The notes below the pieces were generated by a model. That model saw only the letters and a list, made by a program, of their open reading frames with translations, was not told the DNA's origin and did not search any database. A program made the translations under genes and the position numbers. A stretch of DNA of 64,000 nt from Candidatus Levyibacteriota bacterium (GTDB lineage Bacteria > Patescibacteriota > Microgenomatia > Levybacterales > UBA12049). Position 1 is the first letter of the stretch. The number at the start of each line of letters is the position of its first letter. Shown here in pieces: positions 1 to 33,215 of the stretch. The stretch is taken from the NCBI GenBank assembly GCA_963790825.1, contig CAWBPM010000003.1:317681-381680 (forward strand). The letters are read 5' to 3'.

Positions 1-267
1 TTGAATTATTTTTAACTCTCATATTGACTTGTAAAGTCTACCACCTGAAGAAGTCATTTCAAAAGTCCTTTTAAACTCAGGTTTGACAGGCTAAATTAGC
101 GGAATTTTTCGAGTTTTGAAATGAGTAAAAAGGGGTTCTAGCTTTACGTATATTTATCAATTTTCTTCTGAATCTTAATGGTTTCATTTCATAGCTCACA
201 TTTTATAGAAAATCTGGCAAGTGTAGATTTATTACCCTTAAACTTTCACAGTTTCATTTATATACTT

Positions 268-1029: not shown

Positions 1030-2902
1030 TATCGTATAAAGCAGAATTCATATTTTTGTTGTTTAAATGATTTTTAAAATATTCTTGTGTTTCTCTATCA
1101 ACTGAGTAAATGTAGCATCCCTTCATCCCTCTAGTCATAAGTGTCCTATATGTATTTTTAATAATCGTATCCACCATTATCTTTGCTGATTCTGGATTTT
1201 CTTTAAGCATATTCTTTATTCCTTTTACTGATTGATCTGTAGATGCACGCTTTGTCGCATCTGTAATAATCTTGCCGTTACGGATTATCATATCTGGACC
1301 GATTATTACCCCGACATAATCTAACTCCAATCCTTGAGAAGTGTGGATACAACCTACCTCTTTAACAGAATCAGGATGAATTATCCAAGCCTGACCGTGG
1401 GAGTTCAGATTCCAAGTAGCTTTATAATCTCCGATCACTATATCTTTTAATTCAGTATTATTCTTACTTATCCACTTCCAGCAATAACCGGCTAGTAATC
1501 TTGACTTATTGTTTTTCTGATTTAGGCCAATTATTTTTTCATGAAGAACACTGGGACTGTCTATAACTTTAAAGTCGAAATTAATATCTTCTAATGATTC
1601 ATTCGCCGTTTCTCTTATTTGTAATAGATTATCAATCCAAGCTAGATAACCGTCTGACCCATTACATCTAAACTGAGACTCTAATGTTAAAGATGTAACC
1701 TTTGCGTCAGCGTTTTTTGCCCAATTAATAATTTCCGATTTTTTACCTATATCTTTCAATGTAACTCTTTGATCCTCGTCAATAAAAAAAATACAAAGTT
1801 TGGAAGCATTTATTAACTCTTTTATTTGGTTTTCTCCTAGGTGACTAAATAAACCCGACTTTGCATTAAGTCTATGTGCTTCATCAACAATAAGCGAATC
1901 AAATGTATTAGCTCCGATATCATAAAATGAGCCCGATGAAGTAAATAAATTTGAAATACGGGTCTTTGTAAATTTCCCACTTAGTTTCACTTGGTAGACT
2001 TCTCGAGGTGCTGAATTTTTCGTAACGTATTGTGTTACGTCTCCTCTTTTTGTCAGTTCGGTAAGTAAATTTATCGCAACGACTGATTTTCCTGTACCAG
2101 GCCCTCCTTCCACTATTAGCACATTTTTATTAAAGTCAGACGATTCTTTTGCTAATTCAAGGGCAGTTTCGTATACAATTTTTTGATCGTCAATTAATAT
2201 AAATTCCTTATTGCCCTCAAGCATCGAAGCAAGGTTATCAGCTAATGCCTTAGATGGTCTAATTTTCCCATTCTCAATGTCATACAATATATTTGTTTTG
2301 TCACCAAATTTTACGAATCGTTTTATAAATAGTTGCAGTTTTAAGGCATCAGTTTTTAAAAATACAGGAGCCTTATCTGTGTATTCTTTATAAAAATTGT
2401 TATTAATAATTTCATAGCTGTCATAATTATGTAGGTATGCGCATGGAACTAAAGATATATTATTTTCCTGAACAGTACTGTTAAAGTCTTCTAATAATGT
2501 TGCGTATGACCAAACTTGATATGATGGGTGAGCAACTTCTCCATAAAAAGTTGTATTAAGAACGCCGTCTTTTTCAGATAAACTTACACCATCGCTCCAT
2601 TGTTTCAGCTCTACAATTACTGCTACTTTTCTATTCTCACTATTTGTGCCGGTAATTATAAAATCTATTCTTTTAGATGTTTGTGGAATCTTATATTCAA
2701 TTGCGATACCGGCATCATCGGGGATACTTGAATCGTTAATAACATTACTCATGTAAGGCATAGATTTACGCCATGAATTAATTTCACTTTTACCTGTCGA
2801 ATGTCCCATCTCTCGCACAAATGATGTAAGAATTTGTTGCTCTACTTGTCCAGACAATACATCGCTGAGGAAGTCTTTTTTGTTAGATGAATAAACAATC
2901 AT
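977..2902 (-). CDS. DUF2075-type (Schlafen/Nhi-like) P-loop NTPase with an N-terminal PD-(D/E)xK-like nuclease module
   Basis: N-terminus ...RIDFIITGTNS...VAVIVELKQW (D...ELK restriction-endonuclease-like core). Walker A GGPGTGKS, then DEAHRL (Walker B/DEAD-like). C-terminal GCIHTSQGLELDYVGVII...YRTLMTRGMKGCYIY, typical of DUF2075 helicase-like ATPases. Confidence 0.6.
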   Translation of the reverse strand: MIVYSSNKKDFLSDVLSGQVEQQILTSFVREMGHSTGKSEINSWRKSMPYMSNVINDSSIPDDAGIAIEYKIPQTSKRIDFIITGTNSENRKVAVIVELKQWSDGVSLSEKDGVLNTTFYGEVAHPSYQVWSYATLLEDFNSTVQENNISLVPCAYLHNYDSYEIINNNFYKEYTDKAPVFLKTDALKLQLFIKRFVKFGDKTNILYDIENGKIRPSKALADNLASMLEGNKEFILIDDQKIVYETALELAKESSDFNKNVLIVEGGPGTGKSVVAINLLTELTKRGDVTQYVTKNSAPREVYQVKLSGKFTKTRISNLFTSSGSFYDIGANTFDSLIVDEAHRLNAKSGLFSHLGENQIKELINASKLCIFFIDEDQRVTLKDIGKKSEIINWAKNADAKVTSLTLESQFRCNGSDGYLAWIDNLLQIRETANESLEDINFDFKVIDSPSVLHEKIIGLNQKNNKSRLLAGYCWKWISKNNTELKDIVIGDYKATWNLNSHGQAWIIHPDSVKEVGCIHTSQGLELDYVGVIIGPDMIIRNGKIITDATKRASTDQSVKGIKNMLKENPESAKIMVDTIIKNTYRTLMTRGMKGCYIYSVDRETQEYFKNHLNNKNMNSALYDNDAGGASFNVDQENNEK

Positions 2903-2905
2903 AAA

Positions 2906-3253
2906 TTATAATTCAGTATATTTTGTGTGTTTTCCTTTTGCTTTTTCGACAGGATATTTTTTTTTATTTTTTTTAAGTTTTTTTTCTAAGGCTATTGTAG
3001 GATCAATACTTAAGTCGTGACTAGCGAGTAAAACCCAATACAAAACATCTGCAAGTTCTTCACCAATTGCTTCTCTATTTTTCTTTATATACTCTTCCAT
3101 TTCTTTCTCGTTTTTCCATTGAAAATGTTCCATAAATTCTCCCGCTTCAAGTGAGAGAGATAGCGCAACGTCTTTAGGATTATGAAATTGTTTCCAATTT
3201 CTTGCATCGCGAAATTTTATTATTTTTTCTGTTAATTGTTTTATACTGGACAT
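2906..3253 (-). CDS. MazG-like nucleoside triphosphate pyrophosphohydrolase (all-alpha NTP-PPase)
   Basis: Motifs LSLEAGEFMEHF and GEELADVLYWVLLAS match the EExxE/D metal-binding helices of MazG/dUTPase-like NTP-PPases. Stop is 3 nt from the DUF2075 gene start. Confidence 0.65.
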   Translation of the reverse strand: MSSIKQLTEKIIKFRDARNWKQFHNPKDVALSLSLEAGEFMEHFQWKNEKEMEEYIKKNREAIGEELADVLYWVLLASHDLSIDPTIALEKKLKKNKKKYPVEKAKGKHTKYTEL

Positions 3254-3382
3254 AAATATTAAACCTGATCCGTATTATACGCTTTTTGGGGGAGGTTTGG
3301 AAAATTAACCCGCTATTAACTTTCAACTAATAACCAATAACTTCGTTTCTGTGAGCTTTGAAATCAAGCGGGGTAAAAATTA

Positions 3383-3436
3383 GTTGATGTCTTTATTGAC
3401 AATATCAACTAAATAGTATAATATGTTGATATTACT
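3383..3436 (+). promoter_or_regulatory. Sigma70-like promoter (TTGACA at 3396-3401; TATAAT/TAATAT at 3417-3424). It is overlapped by three GTTGAT/ATCAAC half-sites (3384-3389, 3404-3409, 3425-3430), an operator-like arrangement upstream of fic.
   Basis: Read directly: agttgatgtctttaTTGACAatatcaactaaatagTATAATatgttgatattactATG. Inverted repeat AATATCAAC(15 nt)GTTGATATT brackets the -10 element. Confidence 0.5.
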
Positions 3437-4618
3437 ATGGATAATGTCAACTCAGTGCAAATAGGCCGCTATGTCCAACAAAGTCATGGCTATAAAGCCT
3501 TTACTCCTTTTGAATTTCCGCCAAAAGGCGGTTTTATAATCAGCCCAAAATTATACAAAAAGCACGAAGAGGCTATAAGATTAGTCGGTAAATTAGATGG
3601 TATCACCAGACTCCTTCCGGATAAAGATTTTTTTCTGTTAATGTTTATAAAAAAAGATGCCACCTATTCTAGTCAGATTGAGGGTACAAAAGCTACATTG
3701 CAGGATGCAGTAGCTGAGCCAGTTACAGAAGAAAAGTCTCGACGACACCCGGACGTTGATGATATTATCCATTATATTGATGCTTTAAATTATGGCATTG
3801 AAAGAACTAAAACTTTACCAATCTCACTAAGACTTATAAGAGAAATCCACGAGCGATTGATGACTGGTGCACGTTCAACTCAGCATGCATATCCAGGAGA
3901 ATTTCGTCATTCCCAAAACTGGATAGGAGGGAAGACTCCAGCCGATGCTTCATTTGTTCCTCCTGCTCCAGTAGATATGCATAAGTCATTAAATGATCTG
4001 GAAAAATTTATCCATACAATAGATGAATATCCATCTTTAGTAAAAGCAGGACTAATCCATGCACAATTTGAAACAATTCATCCTTTTACAGACGGTAATG
4101 GCAGAACAGGAAGGATGTTAATTGCCATGTATATCCATCATGCCAGACTTTTAGAAATACCAGTTCTATACTTATCTAGCTATTTTAAAAAGTATCAAAA
4201 ACTTTACTACCAAAAACTGCAGGATTATCATGATGAAAATACACAGATGGAAGCCTGGCTGGAGTTTTTTTTGGAAGGTATTGCAGAAATTGCAAATGCT
4301 TCTATAGAAACATGTACAAAAATAACTGTCCTGAGAGACTCAGACTTTGCCAAAATGCAAAAACTTGGGAAAAAATCAGCACAGTCCACTTTGGAAATAA
4401 TCCGTAGATTATTTGGTCAGCCAATTGTGGGAGTTGCGGAAATAATGAAATGGACAGGTTTCAGTCCGCAAGGAGCATATAATGTTATTAAGCGGCTTGA
4501 AGACTTAAAAATTCTGGAACCTCTTGGTGATGCTACGTATGGACAAAAATACATTTATGCTGATTATTATGAAATCTTTGATGATACTTTTAGAGAAGCT
4601 AGGAGAAAAAATACATGA
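3437..4618 (+). CDS. fic: Fic/Doc family protein (AMPylase-type, class II with N-terminal inhibitory helix)
   Basis: Canonical Fic motif HPFTDGNGRTGR. N-terminal Fic_N-like region. Inhibitory S/TxxIEG motif (SSQIEGT). C-terminal winged-helix-like tail. Confidence 0.85.
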   Translation: MDNVNSVQIGRYVQQSHGYKAFTPFEFPPKGGFIISPKLYKKHEEAIRLVGKLDGITRLLPDKDFFLLMFIKKDATYSSQIEGTKATLQDAVAEPVTEEKSRRHPDVDDIIHYIDALNYGIERTKTLPISLRLIREIHERLMTGARSTQHAYPGEFRHSQNWIGGKTPADASFVPPAPVDMHKSLNDLEKFIHTIDEYPSLVKAGLIHAQFETIHPFTDGNGRTGRMLIAMYIHHARLLEIPVLYLSSYFKKYQKLYYQKLQDYHDENTQMEAWLEFFLEGIAEIANASIETCTKITVLRDSDFAKMQKLGKKSAQSTLEIIRRLFGQPIVGVAEIMKWTGFSPQGAYNVIKRLEDLKILEPLGDATYGQKYIYADYYEIFDDTFREARRKNT

Positions 4619-5292
4619 TTAAACTATCAAGATCAAAAATAGAATTACTATTTGATTGTCCAAGATGCTTCTGGCTCTATGCCGGGAAGGGAATAGCAAG
4701 ACCCTTTGGTGCTCCTTATACTATCAATAACGCGGTGGATTTCCTTCTGAAGAAAGAATTTGACGAGCATAGAAAAAATGGAACAGCTCATTGGTTAATA
4801 AAAAGAGAAGGAATAGATGCGATTCCGTTTATGCATGAAGATATCGATAAATGGAGGAATAATTTTACAGGAATTCAATATTACGATGGGGATACAGACT
4901 TTCTTGTTTTTGGTGCAGTAGATGATATTTGGGTTGATTCGAAAGGTAGTTTAATGGTTGTTGATTATAAAGCATCCGGCGCAAAAGAAGGCGAGCTACA
5001 TGACAGCTACAAACGCCAGATGGAGATTTATCAATGGATACTTCGAAAGAACGGTTTCAAGGTATTAAATAGAGGTTATTTTGTTTATTGCCGAGTAAAT
5101 AAAGATAATGGATTCGCAGACGGAAAATTAAGTTTTGACATAAAAGTGCAGCCGTATGACGGAGATGATTCCTGGGTCGAAAAAACTATTAAAGAAGCAA
5201 TTGAGTGCTTAAAGAGTGATAAAATACCTGATCCGGGTCTGGATTGTGATTTTTGTAAATACAGAGAGGCAGTTAGGCAGTTTGAAAAATAA
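4615..5292 (+). CDS. PD-(D/E)xK nuclease, Cas4/RecB-like, with 2+2 cysteines (possible Fe-S cluster)
   Basis: N-terminal CPRCFW. Motif II D (GAVDDIWVD). Motif III VVDYK. QxxxY motif (YKRQMEIYQWIL). C-terminal CDFCKY. Start overlaps the fic stop (ATGA). Confidence 0.6.
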   Translation: MIKLSRSKIELLFDCPRCFWLYAGKGIARPFGAPYTINNAVDFLLKKEFDEHRKNGTAHWLIKREGIDAIPFMHEDIDKWRNNFTGIQYYDGDTDFLVFGAVDDIWVDSKGSLMVVDYKASGAKEGELHDSYKRQMEIYQWILRKNGFKVLNRGYFVYCRVNKDNGFADGKLSFDIKVQPYDGDDSWVEKTIKEAIECLKSDKIPDPGLDCDFCKYREAVRQFEK

Positions 5293-5310
5293 GAAATTAT
5301 AATATAAACA

Positions 5311-6174
5311 ATGCAAAATAACTATACAGCTACAGAAAAAGACTTTAAAGCTATCGAGGAAGGAATACAAACAGTTTGGAGCCCGAAGTTATCATTTATT
5401 TTTAAAGATAAAGATATAATAAGGAATAGCGCAATTGTTGCTTTCGACAGTAAATATATTTACATCTGGACGACAAAAAAACTTGATAATGTAGATAAAA
5501 TTTACTGTTCATTAAAAAACTACTTCGCATATAAATGCCCACATAATATTGACATAGAGAATATTGACCGGATGGGATGGCGGGCCGGAATTTGGCCCCT
5601 TGAGCTAAATAATTTCTTACCACGGGAGCTTAAAAAAAACGATTTTGAAATTCCAAAACCCTGCGGAAGTATGCTTGGGGATTTTATCGTAAACCAAAAA
5701 AAGATCAGAGGAGAAAAAAATAATCCATATATAACTCATGATAGTTACTTAGCTACTATCGTCCACGAATTTGGACATATTTATTACAATCAACACAGAC
5801 TTTGGTGGTATTCAGACAAAACAGAAAATATTGGATATTTGCAGACTGCTTTAAATTTATATCTGGGTAAAAAAACGGGTAAAATTAAAGTCAGAATGCC
5901 ATCACCTACGTTCTTTAATGAAATTTTTGCTTTTTGCTCAGAATATTCTGCCGCAAAGATATTTTGGCAACAGCACAAAGAGAATCTGGATAAATTTGCC
6001 GTAGAATTAATAAAAAATATAATCAAAGAAGAAGAGCAAAAAAATTTAGATAATGAAGATTCCGTATTACAAATAGAAAACGCACACTATGGATCTTTTG
6101 TTTTGGGAAAGATCCTAATAGAAGAATCTCCTGCCTCATGGCCTCAAAAACTGTTACAACAACAAATATTATAA
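5311..6174 (+). CDS. hypothetical protein with HExxH zinc-metallopeptidase-like motif
   Basis: IVHEFGHIYYNQH (HExxH). No other recognisable domain. Third gene of the fic operon, 18-nt gap. Confidence 0.4.
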   Translation: MQNNYTATEKDFKAIEEGIQTVWSPKLSFIFKDKDIIRNSAIVAFDSKYIYIWTTKKLDNVDKIYCSLKNYFAYKCPHNIDIENIDRMGWRAGIWPLELNNFLPRELKKNDFEIPKPCGSMLGDFIVNQKKIRGEKNNPYITHDSYLATIVHEFGHIYYNQHRLWWYSDKTENIGYLQTALNLYLGKKTGKIKVRMPSPTFFNEIFAFCSEYSAAKIFWQQHKENLDKFAVELIKNIIKEEEQKNLDNEDSVLQIENAHYGSFVLGKILIEESPASWPQKLLQQQIL

Positions 6175-6193
6175 GAGTTTTGTTTCTTTTGCC
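6171..6193. repeat. AAGAGTTTTG-family intergenic repeat, copy D (aagagttttgtttcttttgcc)
   Basis: Shares aagagttttgtttcttttg with 12317-12335. The AAGAGTTTTG core also occurs at 8471, 9213 and 9271. Confidence 0.6.
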
Positions 6194-6225
6194 GTGTTCG
6201 CGCAGCTGACTTTTCGTCTCTTTAC

Positions 6226-6861
6226 TTATTGGTTCTTAAGAACCATTTCCCGGATTTGTTGTCGTCTGGGTTTGACATACCAGGTCGTCCAAACAAGTGT
6301 CAGGATTGAAATTGCGGTGAGGATAATCGGTGAAACTACCAGGACTACCGGAGTAGGTAATGAATAAACCATGATAACCCGTAAAATGAACTCGCCGACA
6401 TACGCCACTCCCCAAATGAGCGTTATTAAGCGGAACAGATCAAGTGCGATTTTCATTTGTAAAGATTTGCTAAATCTTTTTCTTTTTTCCGGATCTTTTC
6501 CTGCCACAAATTCACGGGCGAAATAAAACATTAACGGTCTTTTCGTCGGTAATGTTAAAAAACAGGCGATTCCGAGAAATCCGGTAAAGAACGATTCGCG
6601 GATCAGTAAAAGGCGGGGGCTGCCGCCAAGCAAAACTCCGGCAATACTAGTGAGTGTCCCGAGTAGTACTGTCGTCGAAATGACGTTCAGCGTATGATCT
6701 TTCATAAATTCGACTAATGTATCAAAAATTGGATACAGTGATGCCAGACTAAGCGCGATTACTTCTGATGCGGCGAAATATTTTTTAGCAATCGTGTACA
6801 TTGCGAAAGGAATGATGATGTTTAATAGTAAATCTTTTAGTGTATCCCGGAATTTTAGCAT
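6226..6861 (-). CDS. hypothetical integral membrane protein (higher GC than flanks)
   Basis: Multiple hydrophobic helices. No recognised motif. GC about 47% versus about 31% in the adjacent island. Confidence 0.5.
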   Translation of the reverse strand: MLKFRDTLKDLLLNIIIPFAMYTIAKKYFAASEVIALSLASLYPIFDTLVEFMKDHTLNVISTTVLLGTLTSIAGVLLGGSPRLLLIRESFFTGFLGIACFLTLPTKRPLMFYFAREFVAGKDPEKRKRFSKSLQMKIALDLFRLITLIWGVAYVGEFILRVIMVYSLPTPVVLVVSPIILTAISILTLVWTTWYVKPRRQQIREMVLKNQ

Positions 6862-7151
6862 GACCTACCCAGACTAGCATATTTGAAGCTATTTTCCTAG
6901 GACCGTTTCCATCTAAGAGGTCATTTGCCATAGAAACCAACCGCGTTTCCGTCCTTTGGTATTTGCATTTTAAAGCAGTGATTCTTTTACAGAGTATATA
7001 TCTAAGGTCGTTTTTCGTTCTTTTTGTGAGCATTGAAACAAAGCGCGTTAAAAATTATGAAATGAGTTGTCAGGGGGATTCCGGCGAATTGCCGGAGGGG
7101 GTGATATAACCCGATCAGTTCGCGAAAGCATTTTAGCTGACCGTTCACTGG

Positions 7152-7232
7152 CAAGAGAGCTTTGGTACTTTCTCGGCAGAAAGTATAGAAATAAAAAACG
7201 GGACGTTACTTAAAAATCCCCGAGGGGCGGAA
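7152..7232. repeat. Hairpin-containing intergenic repeat, copy A. 8-bp stem TACTTTCT-cggc-AGAAAGTA at 7166-7185, then a degenerate second module ending CGAGGGG.
   Basis: Direct comparison with 8432-8508 and 9170-9282. Confidence 0.6.
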
Positions 7233-7290
7233 GCGTTATATTTCTTATTCTATTGACAAGTCGTTGGGTTTGGGCCAAGATTAAATTGTA

Positions 7291-7869
7291 ATGGTAAAAC
7301 CTAATATCTATGCAGTTATTCTGGTCGGACTTTTAGCTGGATTAGCACAGTATACCGCTACAACTGCGTCTTTTTATCTGGTTGAGTTTTCAGGAATATT
7401 TTTCGGATTGTTCATGGGAACTTACTACTGTGTATTTTATAAACAGTCAGTCGCGAAAGCACTTTTATATATGCTAATTTCAGGCGTGTGTTTTTATGTA
7501 TCATGTTTGGTTTTTACTTTTATCAATCCCATATCATTCACATCTGGATATGATGAGACGAACTGGCTGAGATCAATAATGGCATTGTTGTGGGCTGGGG
7601 GAATCGGTGCTTTCGGTTTAGCCTTAGGTTTTCATTTTCTCTACAGCAAAATTACATCTCAGCGTTTCCTCGCGATTGTTGTAGTTGGGGGACTTCTAAG
7701 TTTTTTCTTTCTTTTAAATGGCGGTCCGATTTTCAATGAGTCAGGAAGCTCAAATCAATCCATACAGATTTTCTGGAGTTGGCTCTGGCTGTTTTTCGTC
7801 TGGCAAACCGGAGTGGCACTTACATTAACTTTTACGTTTCCCCAAAAGTCAGTAAATTCTAAATTCTAA
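7291..7869 (+). CDS. hypothetical integral membrane protein
   Basis: About 6 predicted TM helices. No motif. Confidence 0.5.
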   Translation: MVKPNIYAVILVGLLAGLAQYTATTASFYLVEFSGIFFGLFMGTYYCVFYKQSVAKALLYMLISGVCFYVSCLVFTFINPISFTSGYDETNWLRSIMALLWAGGIGAFGLALGFHFLYSKITSQRFLAIVVVGGLLSFFFLLNGGPIFNESGSSNQSIQIFWSWLWLFFVWQTGVALTLTFTFPQKSVNSKF

Positions 7870-7926
7870 CCCCCGGAGTTAAATAACTTCAAACCCCGGG
7901 TAGTTTCTACCTGGAAGGTGGAATAG

Positions 7927-8346
7927 CTACTGGTGAATGAATCTTTTTATTCCGAAACCGAATTGGGCAACCATTACCCAATATCCAATAAGAAGCATTA
8001 TGATATCTCCTCCGGATATAGTAGTAACGGAAATTTGCCAGAGAGATAGAAGTGTTGCTGCAATAAGATTTGCCAATCCCCAACGAAAGTTAACTTTCGG
8101 TTTTGTTTGTTGACCAAAAGGACTACGAGCAATAGTGTTTGACCGTCCCCAAATAAAATGAGGCATACCGTTCCCAAGAAAAGCACCGATTAAGAAATAC
8201 AAAAAGTAAGAGAGGAACATAATTAGACTGTAACAAATGTGCAGCGGATTATCAAGATAAATAATTTCCACCCTCCAGGTGGAATAGCAAGCTAAGTCTT
8301 GTGTTCCCATCGCGTTTCCATTCTTGGTAAATATAATATTGATCAT
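7927..8346 (-). CDS. hypothetical integral membrane protein
   Basis: Hydrophobic 139-aa ORF. No motif. Confidence 0.45.
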   Translation of the reverse strand: MINIIFTKNGNAMGTQDLACYSTWRVEIIYLDNPLHICYSLIMFLSYFLYFLIGAFLGNGMPHFIWGRSNTIARSPFGQQTKPKVNFRWGLANLIAATLLSLWQISVTTISGGDIIMLLIGYWVMVAQFGFGIKRFIHQ

Positions 8347-8431
8347 TCATTGAAAATTGCCATTGGTTCTGAGCGTAGCCAAGTTAAGCTTGGCGGAGTT
8401 GAAGGAAAAATTGGATTTTGAAAATTTATAT

Positions 8432-8508
8432 CCGCTTTCTCGGCAGAAAGTACAATAAAAAGGGTTGCAAAGAGTTTTGGGCGTCTTTTTAAAAAGACGC
8501 GAGGGGAA
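8432..8508. repeat. Hairpin-containing intergenic repeat, copy B. Hairpin 2 ctttct-cggc-agaaag at 8435-8450. AAGAGTTTTG at 8471-8480. Hairpin 1 gcgtcttttt/aaaaagacgc at 8481-8500. CGAGGGG at 8500-8506.
   Basis: Seen directly. Most complete copy of the unit. Confidence 0.65.
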
Positions 8509-8509
8509 T

Positions 8510-8782
8510 TTATTCATTTATCCGGGTGTAATTTTGAAGCAATATACTATACATTAATGCGTCTTCCGCAATTTTTTGTTTATCATCACCATCAAGAATT
8601 GTTTCCAGTTTCTCTAGGATTGTTTTTATATATGGTTTTATCTCTTCCTCATTAACCTCATTTCTTCGGGCGATTGCCTCTTGAGTGAAGCGTTTTGCCA
8701 TATTTATTGATCCTCTGTAATAGCCCAAGGCCACCCGTTTCAGATCCATACTTAAAGATTCTAATGCGATTTTATTATTCAT
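8510..8782 (-). CDS. hypothetical protein. Its stop overlaps the start of the upstream ORF by 8 nt.
   Basis: 90-aa ORF, translationally coupled with 8775..9116. Confidence 0.4.
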   Translation of the reverse strand: MNNKIALESLSMDLKRVALGYYRGSINMAKRFTQEAIARRNEVNEEEIKPYIKTILEKLETILDGDDKQKIAEDALMYSILLQNYTRINE

Positions 8783-9116
8783 ATAATTCCTTAAAGAAAA
8801 ATCGTGTTAACTTTTCAAATTTTTTCCTGATTGTTTTATCCTGAATTTCATTGCTTGTATTATTCAGAGCAGGCCGGATATTAATGAACGAGTTAAAATC
8901 AATAACTTTTGTCTCTAAATCTATGCCTCCGCCCCACAAATCATCTTGATTTGATCCGCTCTTTAACAATAGTTCTTCCGACTCAAAATGTCTGTCGCAT
9001 CCTGCAGAGCAAACTTTTTTCCCGATATCTATTACGGTTTTAATATATACATCAAACTGCTCGCGAAGTTTTTTAATTTCCTCTTTTGTATACGCATCGG
9101 ATTTGGTAATTATCAC
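8775..9116 (-). CDS. hypothetical protein (GTG start)
   Basis: 113-aa ORF overlapping the downstream 90-aa ORF. No confident family assignment. Confidence 0.4.
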   Translation of the reverse strand: MIITKSDAYTKEEIKKLREQFDVYIKTVIDIGKKVCSAGCDRHFESEELLLKSGSNQDDLWGGGIDLETKVIDFNSFINIRPALNNTSNEIQDKTIRKKFEKLTRFFFKELYE

Positions 9117-9169
9117 TGTCTTATTTTAGCAAATTATACTCTTTAAAACTATAAAGCCGTTTTTTCTTC

Positions 9170-9282
9170 TCAAAAAGTTTTGGGCCTCTTTTTAAAAAGA
9201 CGCAGGAAATATAAGAGTTTGCTCGCCTCGCTGCGAAGCAGGATACTTTCCCGGCAGAAAGTATAAAAATAAGAGTTTTGTC
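9170..9282. repeat. Hairpin-containing intergenic repeat, copy C, permuted order. Hairpin-1-like cctctttttaaaaagacgcagg at 9185-9206. AAGAGTTTG at 9213. Hairpin 2 tactttcc-cggc-agaaagta at 9245-9264. AAGAGTTTTG at 9271-9280.
   Basis: Seen directly. Confidence 0.6.
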
Positions 9283-9442
9283 CATTCTGCTCTAAACACA
9301 AAGATAACAGGGTCCGGCCCAAACCTTTAATCCAGAAAACCACATGTCCCGATGATTCCGCCATCCGGAACAAATCTGTTATGTGCCAGAATACGCTCCC
9401 GTTCAGCTTGACATTAATTTAATTTAATACAATAATCTCTAC

Positions 9443-10081
9443 ATGATTGAGGATCCCCTCTCCTTTACTATAGAACCTGAGAATTATGCCGAAACTGTTG
9501 TCAAACAAAACAGACAAATTGCGGAAAGTTTCCGCCTCAGTGTCTTAGCTGAAATTAAAAAGCGTAACTTAACTAAAGATGGAAATGAGATTGTAAGACA
9601 ACTGCTTGGGAGTGGCCAAGGTGGAGTTCTGGGAGTAATCAATAGTGAAGGACGTATGTTCCGACAAATGATGAAGACTATTCCTAATTCACACCCTGAT
9701 GCAATAGGAATAAATGTAGGAGGACTATCCGTATTTTATGCACTAGCCAACGGCAATAAAGCTAAATATAAAGAAGAAGGAGATGCTTTTGTTCGTGGAG
9801 TTGCCGGAAGAATGGGCTTTATTACACAGGACGATGATCCCTCCGCTTCAGAGCGAATAAGAATGGTCACAATTCCTGATGAGTTGGACCAGAAGCCTAA
9901 ATACAGCGTATCTATTCAGGATTTCCAATGGCTGGCGGGCACTCCATACTTAAGAGGACGGCAAATGTTTAAAGATAACAGACATCCCAGTCTGCCATAT
10001 GCCTTATCTACTTTTACTACTCTGGATATTGAACCGGATATGGTCTTTATCAGACGGTTACGCCTTCCATTCCTTTCTTGA
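9443..10081 (+). CDS. hypothetical protein
   Basis: 212-aa ORF. No motif. Confidence 0.4.
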   Translation: MIEDPLSFTIEPENYAETVVKQNRQIAESFRLSVLAEIKKRNLTKDGNEIVRQLLGSGQGGVLGVINSEGRMFRQMMKTIPNSHPDAIGINVGGLSVFYALANGNKAKYKEEGDAFVRGVAGRMGFITQDDDPSASERIRMVTIPDELDQKPKYSVSIQDFQWLAGTPYLRGRQMFKDNRHPSLPYALSTFTTLDIEPDMVFIRRLRLPFLS

Positions 10082-10096
10082 TGTTCCTGGCTTTGA

Positions 10097-10579
10097 CTAC
10101 GGTGTGACCTTACCCGCGCGTAGGATAGCCGAATTCAGTTCAACCGGGTATTCGACATCCAGGATCGTATCTCCACGTTCGGGGTAAAACTCATCCCAGC
10201 GACAGACTGACCTTACGATATGTGAACAATTAGGATCATCCATCTCCTGTAAAAGTTCCTCACCCCCTCCGGCAACAGCTTCTTCTCTGCTGAGTACCTC
10301 AGACCCTTTATAAAAATGGCGGGTGGTCTCATGATGCTCGGAACCGGCTATAGTTTCACCATCTATGGTACCTCTGTATATCCAGTATTTTTCCAGCGCA
10401 AATGTTGAGGCAGCTTGTTCGGCAATTTCATTAAGGGATTTTTCTCCAAGAAAAACTACTGTATCCGCTTGGGGACGACTAAGATTGTACCCTGTACCGC
10501 AAAGACGGACCGCCCAGACTTTTTGAACTTCGACACAGACCGGGTTGTTCGGCGGATTTTTTATTATTGATTCCTTCAT
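10097..10579 (-). CDS. hypothetical protein (about 50% GC)
   Basis: 160-aa ORF. No motif. Confidence 0.4.
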   Translation of the reverse strand: MKESIIKNPPNNPVCVEVQKVWAVRLCGTGYNLSRPQADTVVFLGEKSLNEIAEQAASTFALEKYWIYRGTIDGETIAGSEHHETTRHFYKGSEVLSREEAVAGGGEELLQEMDDPNCSHIVRSVCRWDEFYPERGDTILDVEYPVELNSAILRAGKVTP

Positions 10580-10782
10580 TTAATTTAATATATCGCGTGG
10601 ACAATATAACAAAAGCGCTATGAATTGTCAAAACTATAAGTCAAAGTGGGTGTAGTCTCCACCCTCCGGTGATTTAGCTTTGCACTTGTTTTAGAAGCTA
10701 AATTTTTGTAATTTGATATGCATGACGGGTAGTTTACCAGGCTGTGTGCGGATTGAAAGAAAAATGCTAAAATAGGGCTCAT

Positions 10783-11352
10783 ATGTTAGAAGGGTTTACT
10801 GAAAGTGAACGAAGAGCTTTAGAACGGCTCAGACGCAGGACGCAAGAATTGTCTCCAATTGAGAAAGAACGATTAAGGCAAAGAAAAGAGGGGTATAGTA
10901 GTCCCGTAAATACTAGGGATATTGATCCGCTTCGTGATGTAATAGCTGCTTATACTGCATTAAATACGTGGATGCGGAAAGAAGCCGGAGATATGACTAC
11001 TACTTCGGAGGGTGTGTTGATTAAAAAAAGCATTCAACGACAAACTCCGGCAGGAATGGTAGAAGTAGTGCAGCATTTTAACCAGCCATATAGCCCAATT
11101 TATGTCACTTCGATGACAACGGGAAGACAGGGCATTTCACAGGAAGACTCCTTTACGCTTAATAGTGCAAGTTTTTTCGATTTGCGGGAGAGAAAAAGCA
11201 GTACCGGAAAAGTAACTACTTACTCAGAAATGTATCTTGCTGTATCCGGAGACCTTTCAGCCCAAAATATGACGTATGGGCAACGAAAGGCAGTTTTTGC
11301 TATCCACCAAATAATTATTTCAATTGTAGCTCCTCATAATCCTTCCGGGTAA
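10783..11352 (+). CDS. hypothetical protein
   Basis: 189-aa ORF. No motif. Confidence 0.4.
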   Translation: MLEGFTESERRALERLRRRTQELSPIEKERLRQRKEGYSSPVNTRDIDPLRDVIAAYTALNTWMRKEAGDMTTTSEGVLIKKSIQRQTPAGMVEVVQHFNQPYSPIYVTSMTTGRQGISQEDSFTLNSASFFDLRERKSSTGKVTTYSEMYLAVSGDLSAQNMTYGQRKAVFAIHQIIISIVAPHNPSG

Positions 11353-11441
11353 AGAGCGGAAAAGAACAAAGAAAAAGTAACTTATAGCGTAATTTTCCCA
11401 TTTATGCTGATATATTTTCTAAAAAGGGTTTAATTTTATAA

Positions 11442-12317
11442 TTAGTAAGTCTTAAAAGAAGTCCTATTTTTTTTCACTCTCCTGTAAACTTCTATAGGAG
11501 TAACTTTGGGTATAGCGGCTGCTGCCAATACTGCCGCAGGAATTAGTCCTATTAATTTTTCCCTGGATACAATTCGGGACTTATCATCAATAAGCTCGCC
11601 TCTATTCGTATACCGGTTATACGCCGAATATAAATTAGCTACTATTTGCGCTGTGTCCAAAGCCGGCTGCCGTTCAGGCATGGCTCCACTGGCAGTATTC
11701 AGAAATATTCTTCCGATTCTGGAACCCGGAAAAGCCAGTACGTTAGTGCCCACTTCGCGCACTTCGTGTCCGTCAAGCCACATAGTCAATTCTCTGACTA
11801 TTGTAGGCAGAGATGTCGTGAGTGCAACGCCGTCTGCTGCCAGCATTCCCGGTAAATCGTTTCTTTCGGCTGCGGATTTGCTTCGCAATAATGCAAGGAA
11901 TGATTCCTGTAATCTGTCCGTGGTTACATCCAGTACTGCACCAAAAGCTTTATTATGCTTTCCCGGTGTTTCTTTCTCAATGATTCCGGCTACTCCTCCA
12001 TCAACTGCATCACAAGCATAGCCCAGCATTTGTAAAACTAAGCTTAACCACCACATGACCTTTCTGTCTTTTTTTGCTTTTTTATTTTCGCTTTCCATGA
12101 TTACTCCGCCAATACCGACGGAGACGAAGCCTGCAAGGGTAATTTCATTCGGTGTAGCGCCCGGGATTACTTCATGCAGATGCCGGCTTATTGAATTTAC
12201 CGGTCTTTTGAATATCTTTCTAAATGGAGAATTCTTTCCGGCATGTCCGGCGAAAGGTGATTCGGACTCAATTTTCTTCATGGCTGGTAATATACTATAA
12301 CTGAGAGAATTTTGCAA
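11442..12317 (-). CDS. CDP-alcohol phosphatidyltransferase family protein. The start is probably the internal Met near 12281.
   Basis: Signature D-x2-DG-x2-A(G)-x8-G-x3-D-x3-D: CDAVDGGVAG...GAVLDVTTD. Membrane helices. Confidence 0.55.
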   Translation of the reverse strand: MQNSLSYSILPAMKKIESESPFAGHAGKNSPFRKIFKRPVNSISRHLHEVIPGATPNEITLAGFVSVGIGGVIMESENKKAKKDRKVMWWLSLVLQMLGYACDAVDGGVAGIIEKETPGKHNKAFGAVLDVTTDRLQESFLALLRSKSAAERNDLPGMLAADGVALTTSLPTIVRELTMWLDGHEVREVGTNVLAFPGSRIGRIFLNTASGAMPERQPALDTAQIVANLYSAYNRYTNRGELIDDKSRIVSREKLIGLIPAAVLAAAAIPKVTPIEVYRRVKKNRTSFKTY

Positions 12318-12338
12318 AGAGTTTTGTTTCTTTTGTAG
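12312..12338. repeat. AAGAGTTTTG-family repeat, copy E (tttgcaaagagttttgtttcttttgtag)
   Basis: tttgcaaagagttttg is shared with 8466-8480. aagagttttgtttcttttg is shared with 6173-6191. Confidence 0.6.
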
Positions 12339-12370
12339 AAAAAGAACAGGAGAAATAGTAATTTAATAAC

Positions 12371-13108
12371 CTATCTCTTTTTTCTTCCCCCTCCCCGATT
12401 TCTTAAATTGATATAGACTTGCTGTATTACGCCCAAAAGCAACATCGTCCCGGCGTCAACCGAATTAGCATAATTAAATAAGGGAGGCTGGACTCCTGTT
12501 GCCATAATTGCGACGTCAATTACCGCGATACCTAAACATGCATTTCTTAAGAGTCTGGCTACGGTGACATCTTTACTTTCATCCTTCCTTTTCTTTGAAT
12601 TTACCACAGTTGTTTCGATATAAGGAAATAACACTGTCGTTGATTTTACACTTTCTCTTTCCGCTTTCCTTCTTTCAAGAGTTGCTTTGATTATTGTTTT
12701 TTGTTCCTCACTAACTTCAGGATCTATGGGTAGTCTATCTAAAATTGTAATCGCCGTATCAAAGTCGGGTGGAGTCAGTTCGGCTTTATGAAATTTAGCA
12801 AATTCTTTTATGTCCTTACTGTTATTTATAAGACGGGCACCTGCTTCTACTTGTTGTTTCAGTTGAAAATTTATTCTGCCTACCACAGAGGGATCGATTT
12901 GTAAATTTTGTCCGAGTACATCATACAAGGCTAATTTTGTTGTTCCGTAAAATTCGGGAGCTCGGGGTGTGGCTTTTTCCACAGCTAAATCGGCTGACCC
13001 GGAATTTACAGCAGTATTGTCTGATTGCCCACTCGACTGTCCTGTTGCATCCGGATGTGGTTCAATTAAATGTCGAGGGGAAAGACGACCATGTTCTACT
13101 AATGGCAT
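12371..13108 (-). CDS. hypothetical protein
   Basis: 245-aa ORF. C-terminal hydrophobic segment. No motif. Confidence 0.4.
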   Translation of the reverse strand: MPLVEHGRLSPRHLIEPHPDATGQSSGQSDNTAVNSGSADLAVEKATPRAPEFYGTTKLALYDVLGQNLQIDPSVVGRINFQLKQQVEAGARLINNSKDIKEFAKFHKAELTPPDFDTAITILDRLPIDPEVSEEQKTIIKATLERRKAERESVKSTTVLFPYIETTVVNSKKRKDESKDVTVARLLRNACLGIAVIDVAIMATGVQPPLFNYANSVDAGTMLLLGVIQQVYINLRNRGGGRKKR

Positions 13109-13196
13109 CTTGAGGGAATTATACTAGGGGTTGGTATAATTTGCAATTATCTCTTTTTATGAGACTTTTGCAGCTAATTTTTTTCGATTCATAATT

Positions 13197-14111
13197 TCAG
13201 ACGGTTTTTTCTATTTGCTTCTCTGTTTCAAACTTCCTATAAGCTTTAAGTTTAGTTTGCAAAACCTGTGAGATAAACTCACGGTAGTCAAGGGGATGGA
13301 AAGCGAGGATATTTTTCGTTATTGTTTCGCGTGTGACGTGAGGACGCATATATCGTTTCTGCAGAATTTTTGCACCAACTTCAAACAAACGCAATAAAAA
13401 CGTAGCGGATTTACTAAGTTTAGTTGACATCTTATGAACCATCTTTTTGCGCCTAATTTTTAAACAATTGGGCATCCAGAACGTTACCCAGGAGTTGGCT
13501 TTTATAAATTTTTTGTAGGTGTCGTCCCGATCAAAAAGCGGCAGGAGTTGTACTACTTCGTGCGCACTGTACATATCCTGCCGGTTCAGAGGAAGATGAA
13601 GTGCGGATTCGTCTATCAGCATGTTTAAACAAATCTTATTTGCAGTTTTTTTCCGACTCGTTCGTTTTCTGCGAAGTCCTTTCATCTGAAGTATGCTAAG
13701 CAGGCATAATCTGCTAATCCATAACGTCCCCCTAGCCGCAATAATAAATAAATCAATGTCATCCTCCGGCTCTGCATTTAACATCGCGACACTTCCGCTG
13801 ATGCCTATCAGTTTAACTGTGGGAATTTTGCCTAAAAAGCGAATAAGTTTCTTTGCTTGATATACTTTTTTCTTGCTTTCTTTCTGTCTTTCAGCCCGAA
13901 TCTGCAAGGTAATTGCCTGGTCCCGCGGCGCATACCACCCGCGGCGCCGAACAAGTAGGAATGATAGTGCGCTGAGCGAATCTGCTACATTCTTTTTTGT
14001 AAATTTGTGAGAACTTAAAACATAGCGCCAGATTTCAGATTGAGACAGCGGATAGCGAAACATACTGCTATAGACAATCGTCCTTAGAACTACTTGAGAA
14101 TTATTTTCCAT
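13197..14111 (-). CDS. hypothetical protein with Pol-beta-like nucleotidyltransferase motif
   Basis: GISGSVAMLNAEPEDDIDLFI (GS...DxD). Confidence 0.45.
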   Translation of the reverse strand: MENNSQVVLRTIVYSSMFRYPLSQSEIWRYVLSSHKFTKKNVADSLSALSFLLVRRRGWYAPRDQAITLQIRAERQKESKKKVYQAKKLIRFLGKIPTVKLIGISGSVAMLNAEPEDDIDLFIIAARGTLWISRLCLLSILQMKGLRRKRTSRKKTANKICLNMLIDESALHLPLNRQDMYSAHEVVQLLPLFDRDDTYKKFIKANSWVTFWMPNCLKIRRKKMVHKMSTKLSKSATFLLRLFEVGAKILQKRYMRPHVTRETITKNILAFHPLDYREFISQVLQTKLKAYRKFETEKQIEKTV

Positions 14112-15522
14112 ACTGATTTAGTACTTGTGTCACGCCGTTTGTCAGCGTTCCGACAGCCGACTGGGCAGAGGTATTGCCAAGCATTGAGCGAACAGCGTTG
14201 CCCAGATATCCATTTGCCTGGTCATTTAATCCGTCATCATAGGTATCGCTCGCGAAAAACGTAGAAACAGCAGTCGGCGCTTGTTCTACGAAAGGATACA
14301 CAAGCGGGTTATCCTTTACCAGCGGCGCCAAATCGACCCTAGCATACGGTTCGCCGAAGGCGCGGAGTTTTGATTCTTCAGTAAATATTTTTTGCTGCGT
14401 ATCTTTCTGCGCTAAATAATGCATGAGAAGCATGGCCGCACCGGGATTTTTACTTTTACTCGAAACTCCCTCCACCCAATAGCTGGCAACTGTAAATCTT
14501 CTTCCTCCCAGTAAACGCGGGACGGGATTGACATGGAATTTGAGATTAGGATTTATAGACTTCATGGTAAAGATATCCCAGGAGTAACCGAAGTACATCC
14601 CGACACTTCCGCTGGCAAAGGCTTGAATTGAAGGTTCACGATTCGGATCCCATACGCTATTTGCAAACTGCATATAGTAGGTTAAGGCATCAGCTGTGTA
14701 GCTTTGCGATGAAGCCATTGATTTTAGGTCAACTCCATTTTGCAAAAACAGCAGTGAAATAATATCCGGAGCATGGGTAATATTATCGTATGCACCGAGT
14801 GCCGCTCCTGCTGTTTTCGTATTTCCGGTAATCGGATCAGTAACCGTCAGACTGTGGGCGACTTTACTAAAATCATCCCAGGTATCCGGAATTTTCGCTC
14901 CTGCCGCTTGAAACATATCGTCATTAGTAAAAAGTTCAAGAGTATCAATTTCCAATGGAATTCCGAATATCGCACCGCTACGCGTAATATCGGTTTTGGT
15001 AACGGGATAGTAGTATTTTTGGAAATCCTGCGGAGTGATAACACTTGTCGGCATTGGCAGCAGGTAACCGGAAAGCATGGGAAGCCAGGTATTATGGTAG
15101 CGGAAAATATCCGGACCGTCACCATTATTAATTCTGGTTGTCAGACGATCGCGGTATTGTTTGATATCCTGCTCAACGTAATTAACGCTAATATGCGGAT
15201 TTGCCCTATGGAAATCAGCAAAAATTCCTTGCATTACGCTGCTGTTTTCCCAGAGTCCCCAATATGTCAAAGTAACATTATTATTCAAATTTGGTCCATT
15301 TTTGAGTAACATAACAGCGCCAAAAAAAATAAGGAGTAGAATAATAACGCCTACTACCCCGGCAATAATGATTTTCAGCTTTGAGGAGCCGGGAGCCGGA
15401 GGAGAAGTTGCCGGTGGCTGAGCGGGTACACCCGGAGAAGGATTTCCCGTACTTGGCGGATAAGAAGGAGGCGGTGGCGGAACCAGCGGTTTATTTTGAG
15501 TGAAAATAACATCTTCATTCAT
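14101..15522 (-). CDS. extracellular solute-binding protein (ABC transporter SBP family 1-like) with Pro-rich N-terminal linker and TM anchor
   Basis: N-terminal PPPPPSYPPSTGNPSPGVPAQPP then TM helix. Periplasmic-binding-protein-like length and composition. Overlaps the upstream gene by 11 nt. Confidence 0.5.
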   Translation of the reverse strand: MNEDVIFTQNKPLVPPPPPSYPPSTGNPSPGVPAQPPATSPPAPGSSKLKIIIAGVVGVIILLLIFFGAVMLLKNGPNLNNNVTLTYWGLWENSSVMQGIFADFHRANPHISVNYVEQDIKQYRDRLTTRINNGDGPDIFRYHNTWLPMLSGYLLPMPTSVITPQDFQKYYYPVTKTDITRSGAIFGIPLEIDTLELFTNDDMFQAAGAKIPDTWDDFSKVAHSLTVTDPITGNTKTAGAALGAYDNITHAPDIISLLFLQNGVDLKSMASSQSYTADALTYYMQFANSVWDPNREPSIQAFASGSVGMYFGYSWDIFTMKSINPNLKFHVNPVPRLLGGRRFTVASYWVEGVSSKSKNPGAAMLLMHYLAQKDTQQKIFTEESKLRAFGEPYARVDLAPLVKDNPLVYPFVEQAPTAVSTFFASDTYDDGLNDQANGYLGNAVRSMLGNTSAQSAVGTLTNGVTQVLNQYGK

Positions 15523-15577
15523 AATGAGTTATCTTCTATAGTATAATACGATTATAGCCTTCGCCGCAATTATCCTT

Positions 15578-17002
15578 ATGAAAAAAACAAAAATATATAT
15601 CATGGACACGGTTATCAATTATAAAAAAATTATTTATGTCTTTTTTTGGTTTTTTCTGGGAGTAATTCTTGGTCTTTTCTTCTTTTTCAGCTTTTTATTT
15701 ATTTATTACCAAAATACTTATGCAAATAAAGTTTATCCCGGTGTTTTTGTGAACGGTATGGATTTTGGCGGAAAGACACAAAATGAAGTCAGACAATTTT
15801 TTGCCGGGAGAAATGCTTCATTTTCAGATACAAAATTTGTCTTTTCTGATAATACACACATCGCATCCGCTTCTGCTAATTACCTGGAATTTGGCTACGA
15901 TCAGAATCTTATTTCCCAGCAAGTTTACACTATCGGCAGATCTGACAGTTTACTGTCTAATATCAGCCTTCTCGTACAAGCGTATATTAACGGCATCAAC
16001 CTTCCCCCGTCTTTCCATTACTCCGATAACCAGCTTACCCGCGTTCTTACACTGATTATTAAACAGATAAATATAAAACCTGTTGATGGACTGTTTACTT
16101 TTAGCGGTGGAAGGGTATCGGCTTTCCGTCTCGCCCAGGACGGACAGGAGGTAGACATAGCCAGTATACAAAATAAACTTATGGACAGTGCATCTCTTAT
16201 GGCAAGCGGCAGAGAGAAAACAATTCTTATTCCCCTAACGATTAATACACTAAAACCGGCAGTAGCGAATGACAAGGTAAATAATTTGGGTATTAAAGAA
16301 TTGCTGGCGAGCGGTACTTCGTTATTTTTTGGTTCAATTGCAAATCGTATTTATAACATTACCCTGGCTGCGACCCGATTAAACGGTGTGCTTATTCCGC
16401 CCAACCAGGTTTTTTCCTTTGATCAAGCACTGGGTGATATTTCGGCTTTCAGCGGGTATAAACAAGCTTATGTTATTCAAAATGGCCATACTGTTTTAGG
16501 AGACGGCGGCGGCGTCTGTCAGGTTTCAACTACGTTTTTCCGCGCAGTCCTAAATGCCGGTTTTCCTATCGTCGAACGCCATGCTCACGCTTACAGAGTG
16601 CATTATTACGAGGAGGATTCAGGTCCGGGCATTGATGCGGCTGTCTATTCTCCGACTGTTGATTTAAAGTTTAAAAATGACAGCGGAAATTATTTGTTAA
16701 TCCAATCAATTGTCGATCCGGCAAATGACAGATTAACATTCCAATTGTACGGAACTAAAGACGGGAGAGAAGTTACTATCGGTAATCCTGTTATTGTGTC
16801 CCAAACCCCGGCTCCGCCTCCCCTATACCAGGATGACCCGGCGCTTCCTAAGGGCACGGTCCAGCAAACAGATTTCCAAGCCGACGGTGCATCTGTTTAC
16901 TTTAAAAGGGAAGTTAAGCAAAACGGAAAAATAATTATTTCCGATAAATTTGTTTCAAATTACCAACCGTGGCAAGCGGTCTATTTGAGAGGAACACAAT
17001 AA
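15578..17002 (+). CDS. VanW family protein
   Basis: C-terminal VanW signature ...GDGGGVCQVSTTFFRAVLNAGFPIVERHAHAY... N-terminal TM. Confidence 0.7.
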   Translation: MKKTKIYIMDTVINYKKIIYVFFWFFLGVILGLFFFFSFLFIYYQNTYANKVYPGVFVNGMDFGGKTQNEVRQFFAGRNASFSDTKFVFSDNTHIASASANYLEFGYDQNLISQQVYTIGRSDSLLSNISLLVQAYINGINLPPSFHYSDNQLTRVLTLIIKQINIKPVDGLFTFSGGRVSAFRLAQDGQEVDIASIQNKLMDSASLMASGREKTILIPLTINTLKPAVANDKVNNLGIKELLASGTSLFFGSIANRIYNITLAATRLNGVLIPPNQVFSFDQALGDISAFSGYKQAYVIQNGHTVLGDGGGVCQVSTTFFRAVLNAGFPIVERHAHAYRVHYYEEDSGPGIDAAVYSPTVDLKFKNDSGNYLLIQSIVDPANDRLTFQLYGTKDGREVTIGNPVIVSQTPAPPPLYQDDPALPKGTVQQTDFQADGASVYFKREVKQNGKIIISDKFVSNYQPWQAVYLRGTQ

Positions 17003-33211: not shown

Positions 33212-33215
33212 CACT

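Follow-up and report, generated by a model that had tools for sequence, protein, structure and literature searches.

Intergenic hairpin repeats in a Patescibacteria contig match the 3′ end of a conserved structured RNA

What are the short hairpin-bearing repeats that lie between the genes of a 6-kb region in a Candidatus Levyibacteriota bacterium genome, and how did they come to be there? We addressed this question in a 64,000-nucleotide stretch of contig CAWBPM010000003.1, here called the window and numbered from its first letter. A sequence-only reading of it had described two hairpin modules and a shared core at five loci, and had put forward three candidates: a cis-regulatory or 5′-untranslated-region (5′-UTR) element, a mobile repeat resembling a miniature inverted-repeat transposable element (MITE), and a small structured RNA family. 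The last of these came closest, in that the repeats are homologous to the 3′ end of a structured RNA. Only one complete RNA is present, however, at 7018–7195, and the other copies are 3′ fragments of 30–65 nt. The question thus becomes what the RNA is and why pieces of one end of it surround its gene.

The hairpins, the core and the shorter copies that had been noted are all present in the window. Hairpin 1, CTTTCYCGGCAGAAAGTA, has three copies, at 7168, 8435 and 9246, each of them on the + strand (0.03 copies expected, and 0 of 100 shuffles equalled the count), and hairpin 2, GCSTCTTTTTAAAAAGACGC, occurs at 8481 and 9184 (0.04 expected). The exact core, AAGAGTTTTG, is found four times, at 6173, 8470, 9271 and 12317, again only on the + strand, with 0.42 expected and 0 of 100 shuffles equalling the count. 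Allowing one mismatch in the core gave no enrichment (9 versus 9.8 expected), so it is the exact copies that carry the weight. A 19-mer, AAGAGTTTTGTTTCTTTTG, is identical at 6173–6191 and 12317–12335 and forms a perfect direct repeat that brackets a 6.1-kb array. A k-mer census of the 64 kb detected no further copies of the hairpins, the core or the 19-mer. In detail, the loop-proximal mismatch reported for the third copy of hairpin 1 (9244–9263) was borne out. Its 8-bp stem was described for three copies and all three exist, but the copy at 8435 keeps only CTTTCT/AGAAAG and one G-U pair because the outer two bases differ. The absence of T-runs behind the hairpins also held: they are trailed by A-rich tails, and on either strand a U-rich tract precedes the hairpin and an A-rich one follows it.

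We scanned hairpin 1 and its two flanking bases against one genome per species and obtained nine matches. Four of them (L001, L002, L007 and L009) extend well beyond the hairpin, aligning with window positions 7020–7186 over ~170 nt that lie upstream of it. L007 is labelled Patescibacteria and the other three are labelled uncultured Gammaproteobacteria; the guanine–cytosine (GC) content is 36–39% in all four. A second search pattern derived from the conserved core, GGGGAATCC-N8-38-GGGGAGGACAATCC, yielded 27 metagenome loci, 26 of which have the same architecture. In all, four contigs of metagenome-assembled genomes and 26 metagenome contigs yielded members of the family, and we aligned 29 full-length copies. 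The predicted RNA is a long rod that its 5′ end closes and that comprises helices P1, P1b, P2, P3 and P4 and conserved internal loops. P1 joins this end to a segment located ~125 nt further on, and the pairing is kept across at least 10 different sequences, including GTGAGC/GCTCAC, GCGAGC/GCTCGC, TTGATCAC/GTGATCAA and CTTGTCGC/GCGACAAG. The apex of the rod is a three-way junction, in which the near-invariant purine-rich strands CAGGGGGAAUCC and GAAGGGGGAGGACAAUCCCCC enclose a variable apical hairpin of 4–12 bp. On the 3′ side of the rod are a GAG(C)UUUUG linker, a terminal stem-loop and a purine-rich or A-rich tail (AAAGAAA). The terminal stem-loop is usually GUACUUUU..AAAAGUAC; in L011 and L016 it is GGCGUCUUUU..AAAAGACGC.

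RNAalifold applied to a MAFFT alignment of 23 sequences predicted 33 base pairs, 23 of which show compensatory double changes. Pairing held in 93.5% of cells, compared with 39–46% when the partners were slid by 1–3 columns, and the covariation score was 0.50 compared with 0.07–0.09 after sliding; none of 500 shuffles reached the observed values. G-U pairs outnumbered A-C pairs (27 versus 10), which favours the strand as drawn, corresponding to the + strand in the window. Single representatives folded to the common shape with z = −5.9 and −4.2, and −10-like boxes precede P1 in several loci. We infer that the RNA is transcribed from the + strand. We conclude that a secondary structure conserved across independent genomes marks these sequences as a structured RNA family, one that is widespread in Patescibacteria. 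The outcome that the sequence-only reading had named as speaking against itself, copies confined to the 6-kb region and lacking covariation, is not what we found, since relatives are widespread in other genomes and covariation is strong.

In the window, a covariance model of the RNA, R1, found exactly one full-length copy, at 7018–7195 on the + strand (121.8 bits, E = 1.4e-23, covering the model from 1 to 181), and matched the other repeat loci partially, so both hairpins and the core are parts of one thing. In this intact gene of ~175 nt, the P1 closing helix joins 7018–7024 to 7153–7159 (TTCTTTT/AAGAGAG), the conserved junction CAGGGGGATTCC-(hairpin)-GGAGGGGGTGATATAACCC spans 7071–7112, the linker GCTTTG lies at 7159–7164 and the terminal hairpin, H1, at 7166–7185, with the A-rich tail starting at 7186; all of these are on the + strand. 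In terms of the predicted structure, the AAGAG of the repeats corresponds to the last bases of the P1 3′ strand and (C)TTTTG to the linker, and hairpins 1 and 2 represent two variant forms of the terminal stem-loop. Each of the two variants terminates intact RNAs in other genomes; the intact RNAs in L011 and L016 end in the second type with its linker, AGTTTTGGGCGTCTTTT..AAAAGACGC.

Two further observations concern the intact gene. A Logan contig (ERR11594402; L039) is 100% identical to 7172–12116 and ends exactly in the loop of the gene's terminal hairpin, where the assembly may have branched because the genome or population contains further copies of the 3′ module. In addition, a 16-nt stretch of the RNA core, TTGCCGGAGGGGGTGA (7089–7104), recurs perfectly on the − strand at 10260–10275, inside the open reading frame (ORF) 10097–10579. 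About 0.01 such matches are expected in this region, as estimated from the region length and the 16-mer frequency, and the match may be what is left of an inverted RNA copy or may have arisen by chance.

To avoid circularity, we based a second covariance model, R2, on the 3′-terminal ~65 nt of 27 RNAs, all taken from other genomes and none from the window, and used it with filters off to score every window position. All five significant matches are on the + strand, the strongest being the end of the intact gene itself (7135–7199, 54 bits), and the fragments lie within 5.2 kb of that gene. The longest fragment, at 9154–9216, comprises the P2 3′ strand, the P1 3′ strand, the linker, H2 (9184–9203, with one stem mismatch) and the tail (R2 32.4 bits, E = 3e-6; R1 22.6 bits) and is 94% identical to 8468–8500. 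It is followed at 9220–9277 by a fragment ending in H1 (9244–9263) and an A-rich tail (26.9 bits, E = 8e-5), which is 93% identical to 7166–7194. The stretch at 9173–9206, previously taken for a permuted module, is instead part of this arrangement: a second, longer 3′ fragment adjoining a third. At 12303–12360 the P1 3′ strand TTTGCAAAGAG, the linker, a third hairpin type, H3 (~12326–12347), and a purine-rich tail scored 27.8 bits (E = 5e-5), and at 8465–8513 the P1 3′ strand TTGCAAAGAG, a TTTTG linker, H2 (8481–8500) and GAGGGG scored 20.3 bits (E = 0.003). R2 found nothing significant elsewhere in the 64 kb; we took a marginal match inside an ORF at 6443–6481 (16.6 bits, E = 0.03) as chance.

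The remaining copies, likewise on the + strand, are smaller. The one at 8432–8461 consists of H1 and an A-rich tail only, and at 12.1 bits its R2 match is weak alone, although 18 nt are identical to 7168–7185. A 19-nt remnant at 6173–6191, made up of the core and the 5′ arm of H3 and starting within the stop codon of ORF 5311–6174, was missed by R2 because its hairpin is missing. At 9271–9289 there is a core-only remnant, AAGAGTTTTG and 9 nt with no hairpin, which is 79% identical to the 19-mer. The copies at 8432–8461, 6173 and 9271 are too short to score; they are tied to the RNA by identities of 18–19 nt. Directly behind the intact gene, a degenerate second 3′ module, GGGACGTTACTTAAAAATCCCCGAGGGG, occupies 7200–7227. 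The earlier description of 7200–7230 as a degenerate copy stands in that the module is colinear with 8479–8506 (hairpin 2 and GAGGGG), but no longer as a hairpin: its fold is no better than that of shuffled sequence, which is also true of 9271–9289 and 6173–6191. Several of the other fragment stems contain a mismatch.

Altogether there are at least six 5′-truncated copies of the 3′ end (6173, 8432, 8465, 9154, 9220 and 12303), each on the strand of the intact gene. Every fragment retains the 3′ end and the 5′ cut point differs, leaving ~30–65 nt, and the R1 and R2 scans detected no 5′ or core fragment of the RNA in the window. We conclude that the repeats are very probably 3′-end fragments of the ~175-nt RNA and not an independent repeat family. 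Read along the + strand, the region consists of the first 19-mer (6173), a VC0807-family gene, the RNA gene with H1 and then the degenerate H2 (7018–7227), and two genes; then H1 (8432), the P1 3′ strand with linker and H2 (8465), a DUF5674 gene pair, the fragment from the P2 3′ strand to H2 (9154), the fragment ending in H1 (9220) and the core (9271); and, after four further genes, the P1 3′ strand with linker and H3 (12303), within which the second 19-mer lies. Blocks of 2–4 unrelated genes stand between the fragments, which form nested direct repeats, with H1 copies flanking H2 copies that in turn flank the gene pair.

We observed the same pattern in other genomes. In L015, a 3′ fragment scoring 64 bits precedes the intact gene by ~270 nt, a single small ORF separating the two, and L002 has a fragment ~500 nt downstream of an intact gene, past one small gene that is TfoX-like by eye. 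Extra modules lie directly after the intact gene in L034 and L021. In these four loci, every fragment is oriented like the nearest intact gene.

Rfam 15 searched at gathering thresholds with the window and eight long loci returned only tRNA, and at E ≤ 10 the region 6900–7300 and the L020 copy gave only chance-level matches to miRNA, CRISPR-DR and lysM models. Literature searches by sequence words and on non-coding RNAs of the Candidate Phyla Radiation (CPR) returned no description of the RNA, and we think it probable that the ~175-nt RNA is truly undescribed. From its invariant purine-rich junction, together with the internal loops, we suspect that it has a specific partner, either a protein or a ligand. 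Within a genome the copies are no more than ~60–70% alike, and they fall into several diverged subtypes, with loop lengths from 2 to more than 40 nt. Different subtypes form head-to-head pairs in L002 (1277–1672), L016 (3524–3872), L018 (1743–2164) and L030 (73–453); the 5′ ends in such pairs are ~15–30 nt apart, so each promoter would have to sit inside the partner gene.

All-against-all BLASTP across ~25 loci detected no protein neighbour common to them, the only recurrent one being guaA in three. By Pfam the neighbours are mostly housekeeping genes, including those for GreA, transketolase, MgsA and a CofE-like ligase as well as guaA. Since the neighbours are variable and mostly housekeeping, the RNA looks like a chromosomal non-coding gene and not like part of a mobile element or the leader of one gene family. 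The guaA gene, which encodes GMP synthase, adjoins the RNA in three independent loci (L012, L016/L029 and L024) and is downstream in the same orientation in two of the three; this adjacency could be inherited synteny or a functional link.

How could 3′ ends of such a gene have accumulated around it? The reading that we tentatively prefer, with a probability of roughly 45%, is that the 3′ end of the RNA gene has been a recurrent target of DNA insertion or recombination, the 3′ module being duplicated or displaced each time, in the way known from tRNA and transfer-messenger RNA (tmRNA) genes. The fragments would then be slowly decaying recombination scars and not independent regulatory elements. 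By an alternative route, recombination could have been anchored on the highly conserved ~30-nt 3′ module, for example after DNA uptake, with no need for a dedicated recombinase. Insertion at the 3′ end would account for the survival of 3′ ends only, for the uniform orientation, for the adjacency of different module types and for the nested direct repeats. An intact gene with directly oriented partial 3′ copies bounding the intervening DNA, the arrangement by which integration sites are recognized, is present in the window.

Several results weigh against this reading. Pfam and NCBIfam searches of the ORFs from 268 to 17002 detected no integrase or transposase within 0–17 kb, and a tyrosine recombinase lies beside the RNA in only one of ~25 loci (L027). 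The gene blocks, at 0.7–3 kb, are too small for autonomous elements. The 5′ limits of the fragments vary, which would not be expected of a single site-specific recombinase, and the fragments at 6173 and in L015 precede the intact gene instead of following it. The DUF5674 pair within one block is a conserved Patescibacteria operon and no obvious accessory cassette. We found no genome with an empty site: the gene on the right flank (12371–13108) has no homologue outside this genome, and the loci of VC0807 homologues are not syntenic. Finally, the core and hairpin-1 patterns had no match in viral contigs, and two shorter patterns gave 70 loci there, none of which (0 of 70) matched the RNA model.

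The rival that survives best holds that the fragments are decayed paralogues: complete RNA genes once stood in tandem, and their 5′ and core parts were deleted to leave 3′ stubs, with no insertion mechanism at all. Genomes do carry several paralogous RNA subtypes, often two per locus, and the hairpin types of the fragments (H1, H2 and H3) also end intact genes elsewhere. The L015 fragment, upstream of its neighbour and near-identical to that neighbour's 3′ end, is what a truncated tandem duplicate should look like. Random decay, however, should leave 5′ and core pieces too, and none were found; intact pairs in other genomes are head-to-head and never same-orientation tandem arrays of 4–6; and both the nested direct repeats and a perfect 19-bp repeat 6.1 kb apart go unexplained. 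We consider decayed paralogues unlikely.

A more ambitious version of the insertion reading is doubtful. It takes the RNA to be an undescribed class, widespread in Patescibacteria, whose terminal stem-loop doubles as a folded-hairpin recombination site. Under it, genomes would carry several paralogues, often head-to-head, the junction would bind a protein or ligand, and blocks of 1–4 genes would be captured without a linked integrase. If true, this would be an integron-like gene-capture site built on an RNA gene.

We judge it improbable that the modules are stand-alone functional hairpins, acting at transcript ends, in transcript stability, as insulators or as a source of promoters for minus-strand genes, although individual copies could possibly have such a function. 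Four of the five loci lie just past the 3′ end of a gene, and tandem modules behind intact RNA genes recur in L034 and L021. On the minus strand, the copy at 12303–12360 supplies a TTGCAA −35-like hexamer with TATATT 17 nt on (TTGCAA-17-TATATT), just before the ATG at 12281 of gene 11442–12281; in a promoter scan it was the only copy that overlapped a good promoter-like site. Against such roles, no T-run stands behind a hairpin on either strand, the other 52 kb contain no significant modules despite many gene ends, the stems are decaying and three remnants do not fold. The related proposal of a cis-regulatory or 5′-UTR element was not supported: the modules match a + strand RNA and are hence antisense to the minus-strand genes that they precede, four of the five loci are at gene 3′ ends or between co-directional genes, and none accompanies the conserved DUF5674 operon in three other genomes.

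Least probable by far is a mobile element, a ~180-nt unit or hairpin end of the MITE or HUH type (of the IS200/IS605, IS91 or REP kind) that leaves fragments as abortive or one-ended transposition products, for although 3′-anchored, 5′-truncated fragments, a subterminal hairpin with a short conserved tail behind it, the strand bias of the copies and head-to-head pairs resembling inverted ends would fit it, no transposase is associated with any of the ~25 loci, within-genome copies are only ~60–70% alike and covary like RNA helices, loops range from 2 to >40 nt, the neighbours are housekeeping genes and the window has no dispersed copies. The MITE-like repeat proposed earlier was not supported: the modules have no terminal inverted repeats and no significant copies elsewhere in the 64 kb, and family members in other genomes are diverged, not near-identical.

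The window, a segment of a bacterial chromosome, has a GC content of 38.5% and encodes RecA, RNase Y, TsaD, Obg and SecY, among other proteins. ARAGORN matched only a tRNA-Pro, which is distant from the RNA locus. Between 6.2 and 13.1 kb the genes are small, mostly uncharacterized and in both orientations. The flank at 0–6.2 kb has a low GC content (31–36%), and its products (1–6170) are RadC, a Schlafen-like/DUF2075 helicase, a MazG-like protein, Fic/DOC, a Cas4-like PD-(D/E)XK nuclease and a weakly zincin-like protein; this block resembles a defence or accessory island, and its boundary coincides with the 19-mer remnant. No clear change in GC content marks the array; the one deviation is the low GC left of 6.2 kb.

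The gene pair at 8510–9116 (−) consists of a DUF5674 gene and an overlapping gene of ~90 codons, whose product weakly resembles sigma-70 region 4. DUF5674 has more than 3,000 homologues; the best 120 are 72–82% identical, and those that are named are 'Patescibacteria group bacterium' records, from which we place the source organism in the Patescibacteria. The pair recurs in three other genomes (L040, L041 and L042), each time in a different neighbourhood, and no 3′ module lies beside the DUF5674 homologues in any of the three.

Elsewhere in the window, a Mutator-family transposase gene (33141–34270) directly adjoins the tRNA-Pro(GGG) gene, and a protein with an HTH_38 domain (an IS30-like N terminus) is encoded at 48.3 kb (48300–49394). 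A 14-mer, GGAAAATAAAACCA, occurs three times, at 41415 (+), 42568 (−) and 56610 (+), at or near gene boundaries. Sigma-70-like promoter matches at 9408–9436, 10603–10631, 12289–12317 and 13118–13146 lie ~5–25 nt before start codons at which no Shine–Dalgarno sequence is evident, and this proximity suggests that 5′ leaders are very short or absent.

Patescibacteria, or CPR bacteria, account for a large share of bacterial diversity and have tiny genomes; to our knowledge, almost none of their non-coding RNAs has been characterized experimentally. Near-invariant loops, strong covariation, several paralogues and the lack of an Rfam match make the RNA described here a concrete candidate new class of RNA for this group; possible roles are those of a ribonucleoprotein component, a ligand sensor or a regulator. 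Judging by the array of fragments, its gene also appears to be a hot spot at which accessory genes enter streamlined genomes.

Among known systems, we considered the RNA of the signal recognition particle, RNase P RNA, tmRNA, the T-box, domain V of group II introns, trans-activating CRISPR RNA (tracrRNA) and the omega-RNA of IscB, the omega-RNA of TnpB, and Y RNA, and dropped them because their signature motifs are missing. Intrinsic terminators are similar in placing a stem-loop at the end of a transcription unit but differ from the present modules, which have an AU-rich stem with a U-rich tract before the hairpin and an A-rich one behind it; a terminator scan listed 0 of the + strand modules, and an intrinsic terminator was rejected. 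MITEs and repeats derived from insertion sequences were also rejected, there being no significant copy outside 6.1–12.4 kb and the members being diverged and covarying. Repetitive extragenic palindromes and bacterial interspersed mosaic elements (REP/BIME) are likewise short, clustered, intergenic stem-loops, but the copies in the window are confined to the vicinity of one RNA gene and homologous to its 3′ end, there is no RAYT gene and the copies do not number in the hundreds.

The RNA closest in shape is 6S RNA, which shares a length of ~175–190 nt, a rod closed by the 5′ end, an unpaired region ~45 nt in and, in some genomes, two paralogues. It differs from the present RNA, which has a three-way-junction apex with a very short apical hairpin, near-invariant loops and an extra 3′ stem-loop outside the rod. 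We rejected 6S RNA, as there was no match to RF00013 at E ≤ 10 and the apex is a three-way junction with a 4–12-bp hairpin, unlike the long apical stem of the 6S rod with its large central bubble.

Integron attC arrays also consist of short gene blocks split by imperfect hairpin sites with a short conserved core beside the stem. In the window, by contrast, the site is the end of an RNA gene, intI, attI and Pc are absent from the 64 kb, GAG(C)TTTTG stands in place of the RYYYAAC/GTTRRRY core pair, and the genes have mixed orientations and promoter-like sites of their own. The scanned ORFs also include no tyrosine recombinase, and an integron was rejected.

Integration sites at the 3′ ends of tRNA and tmRNA genes differ in that the RNA in the window is neither of these, no integrase is nearby, the blocks measure 0.7–3 kb, and the fragments vary in length, with one of them upstream. 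What they share with the window is an intact small-RNA gene behind which lie partial copies of its 3′ end in direct orientation, unrelated and mostly poorly characterized genes in between, and tandem and nested repeats that suggest successive events. If insertion at the 3′ end is the correct reading, the paradigm of tRNA and tmRNA integration sites would extend to another RNA.

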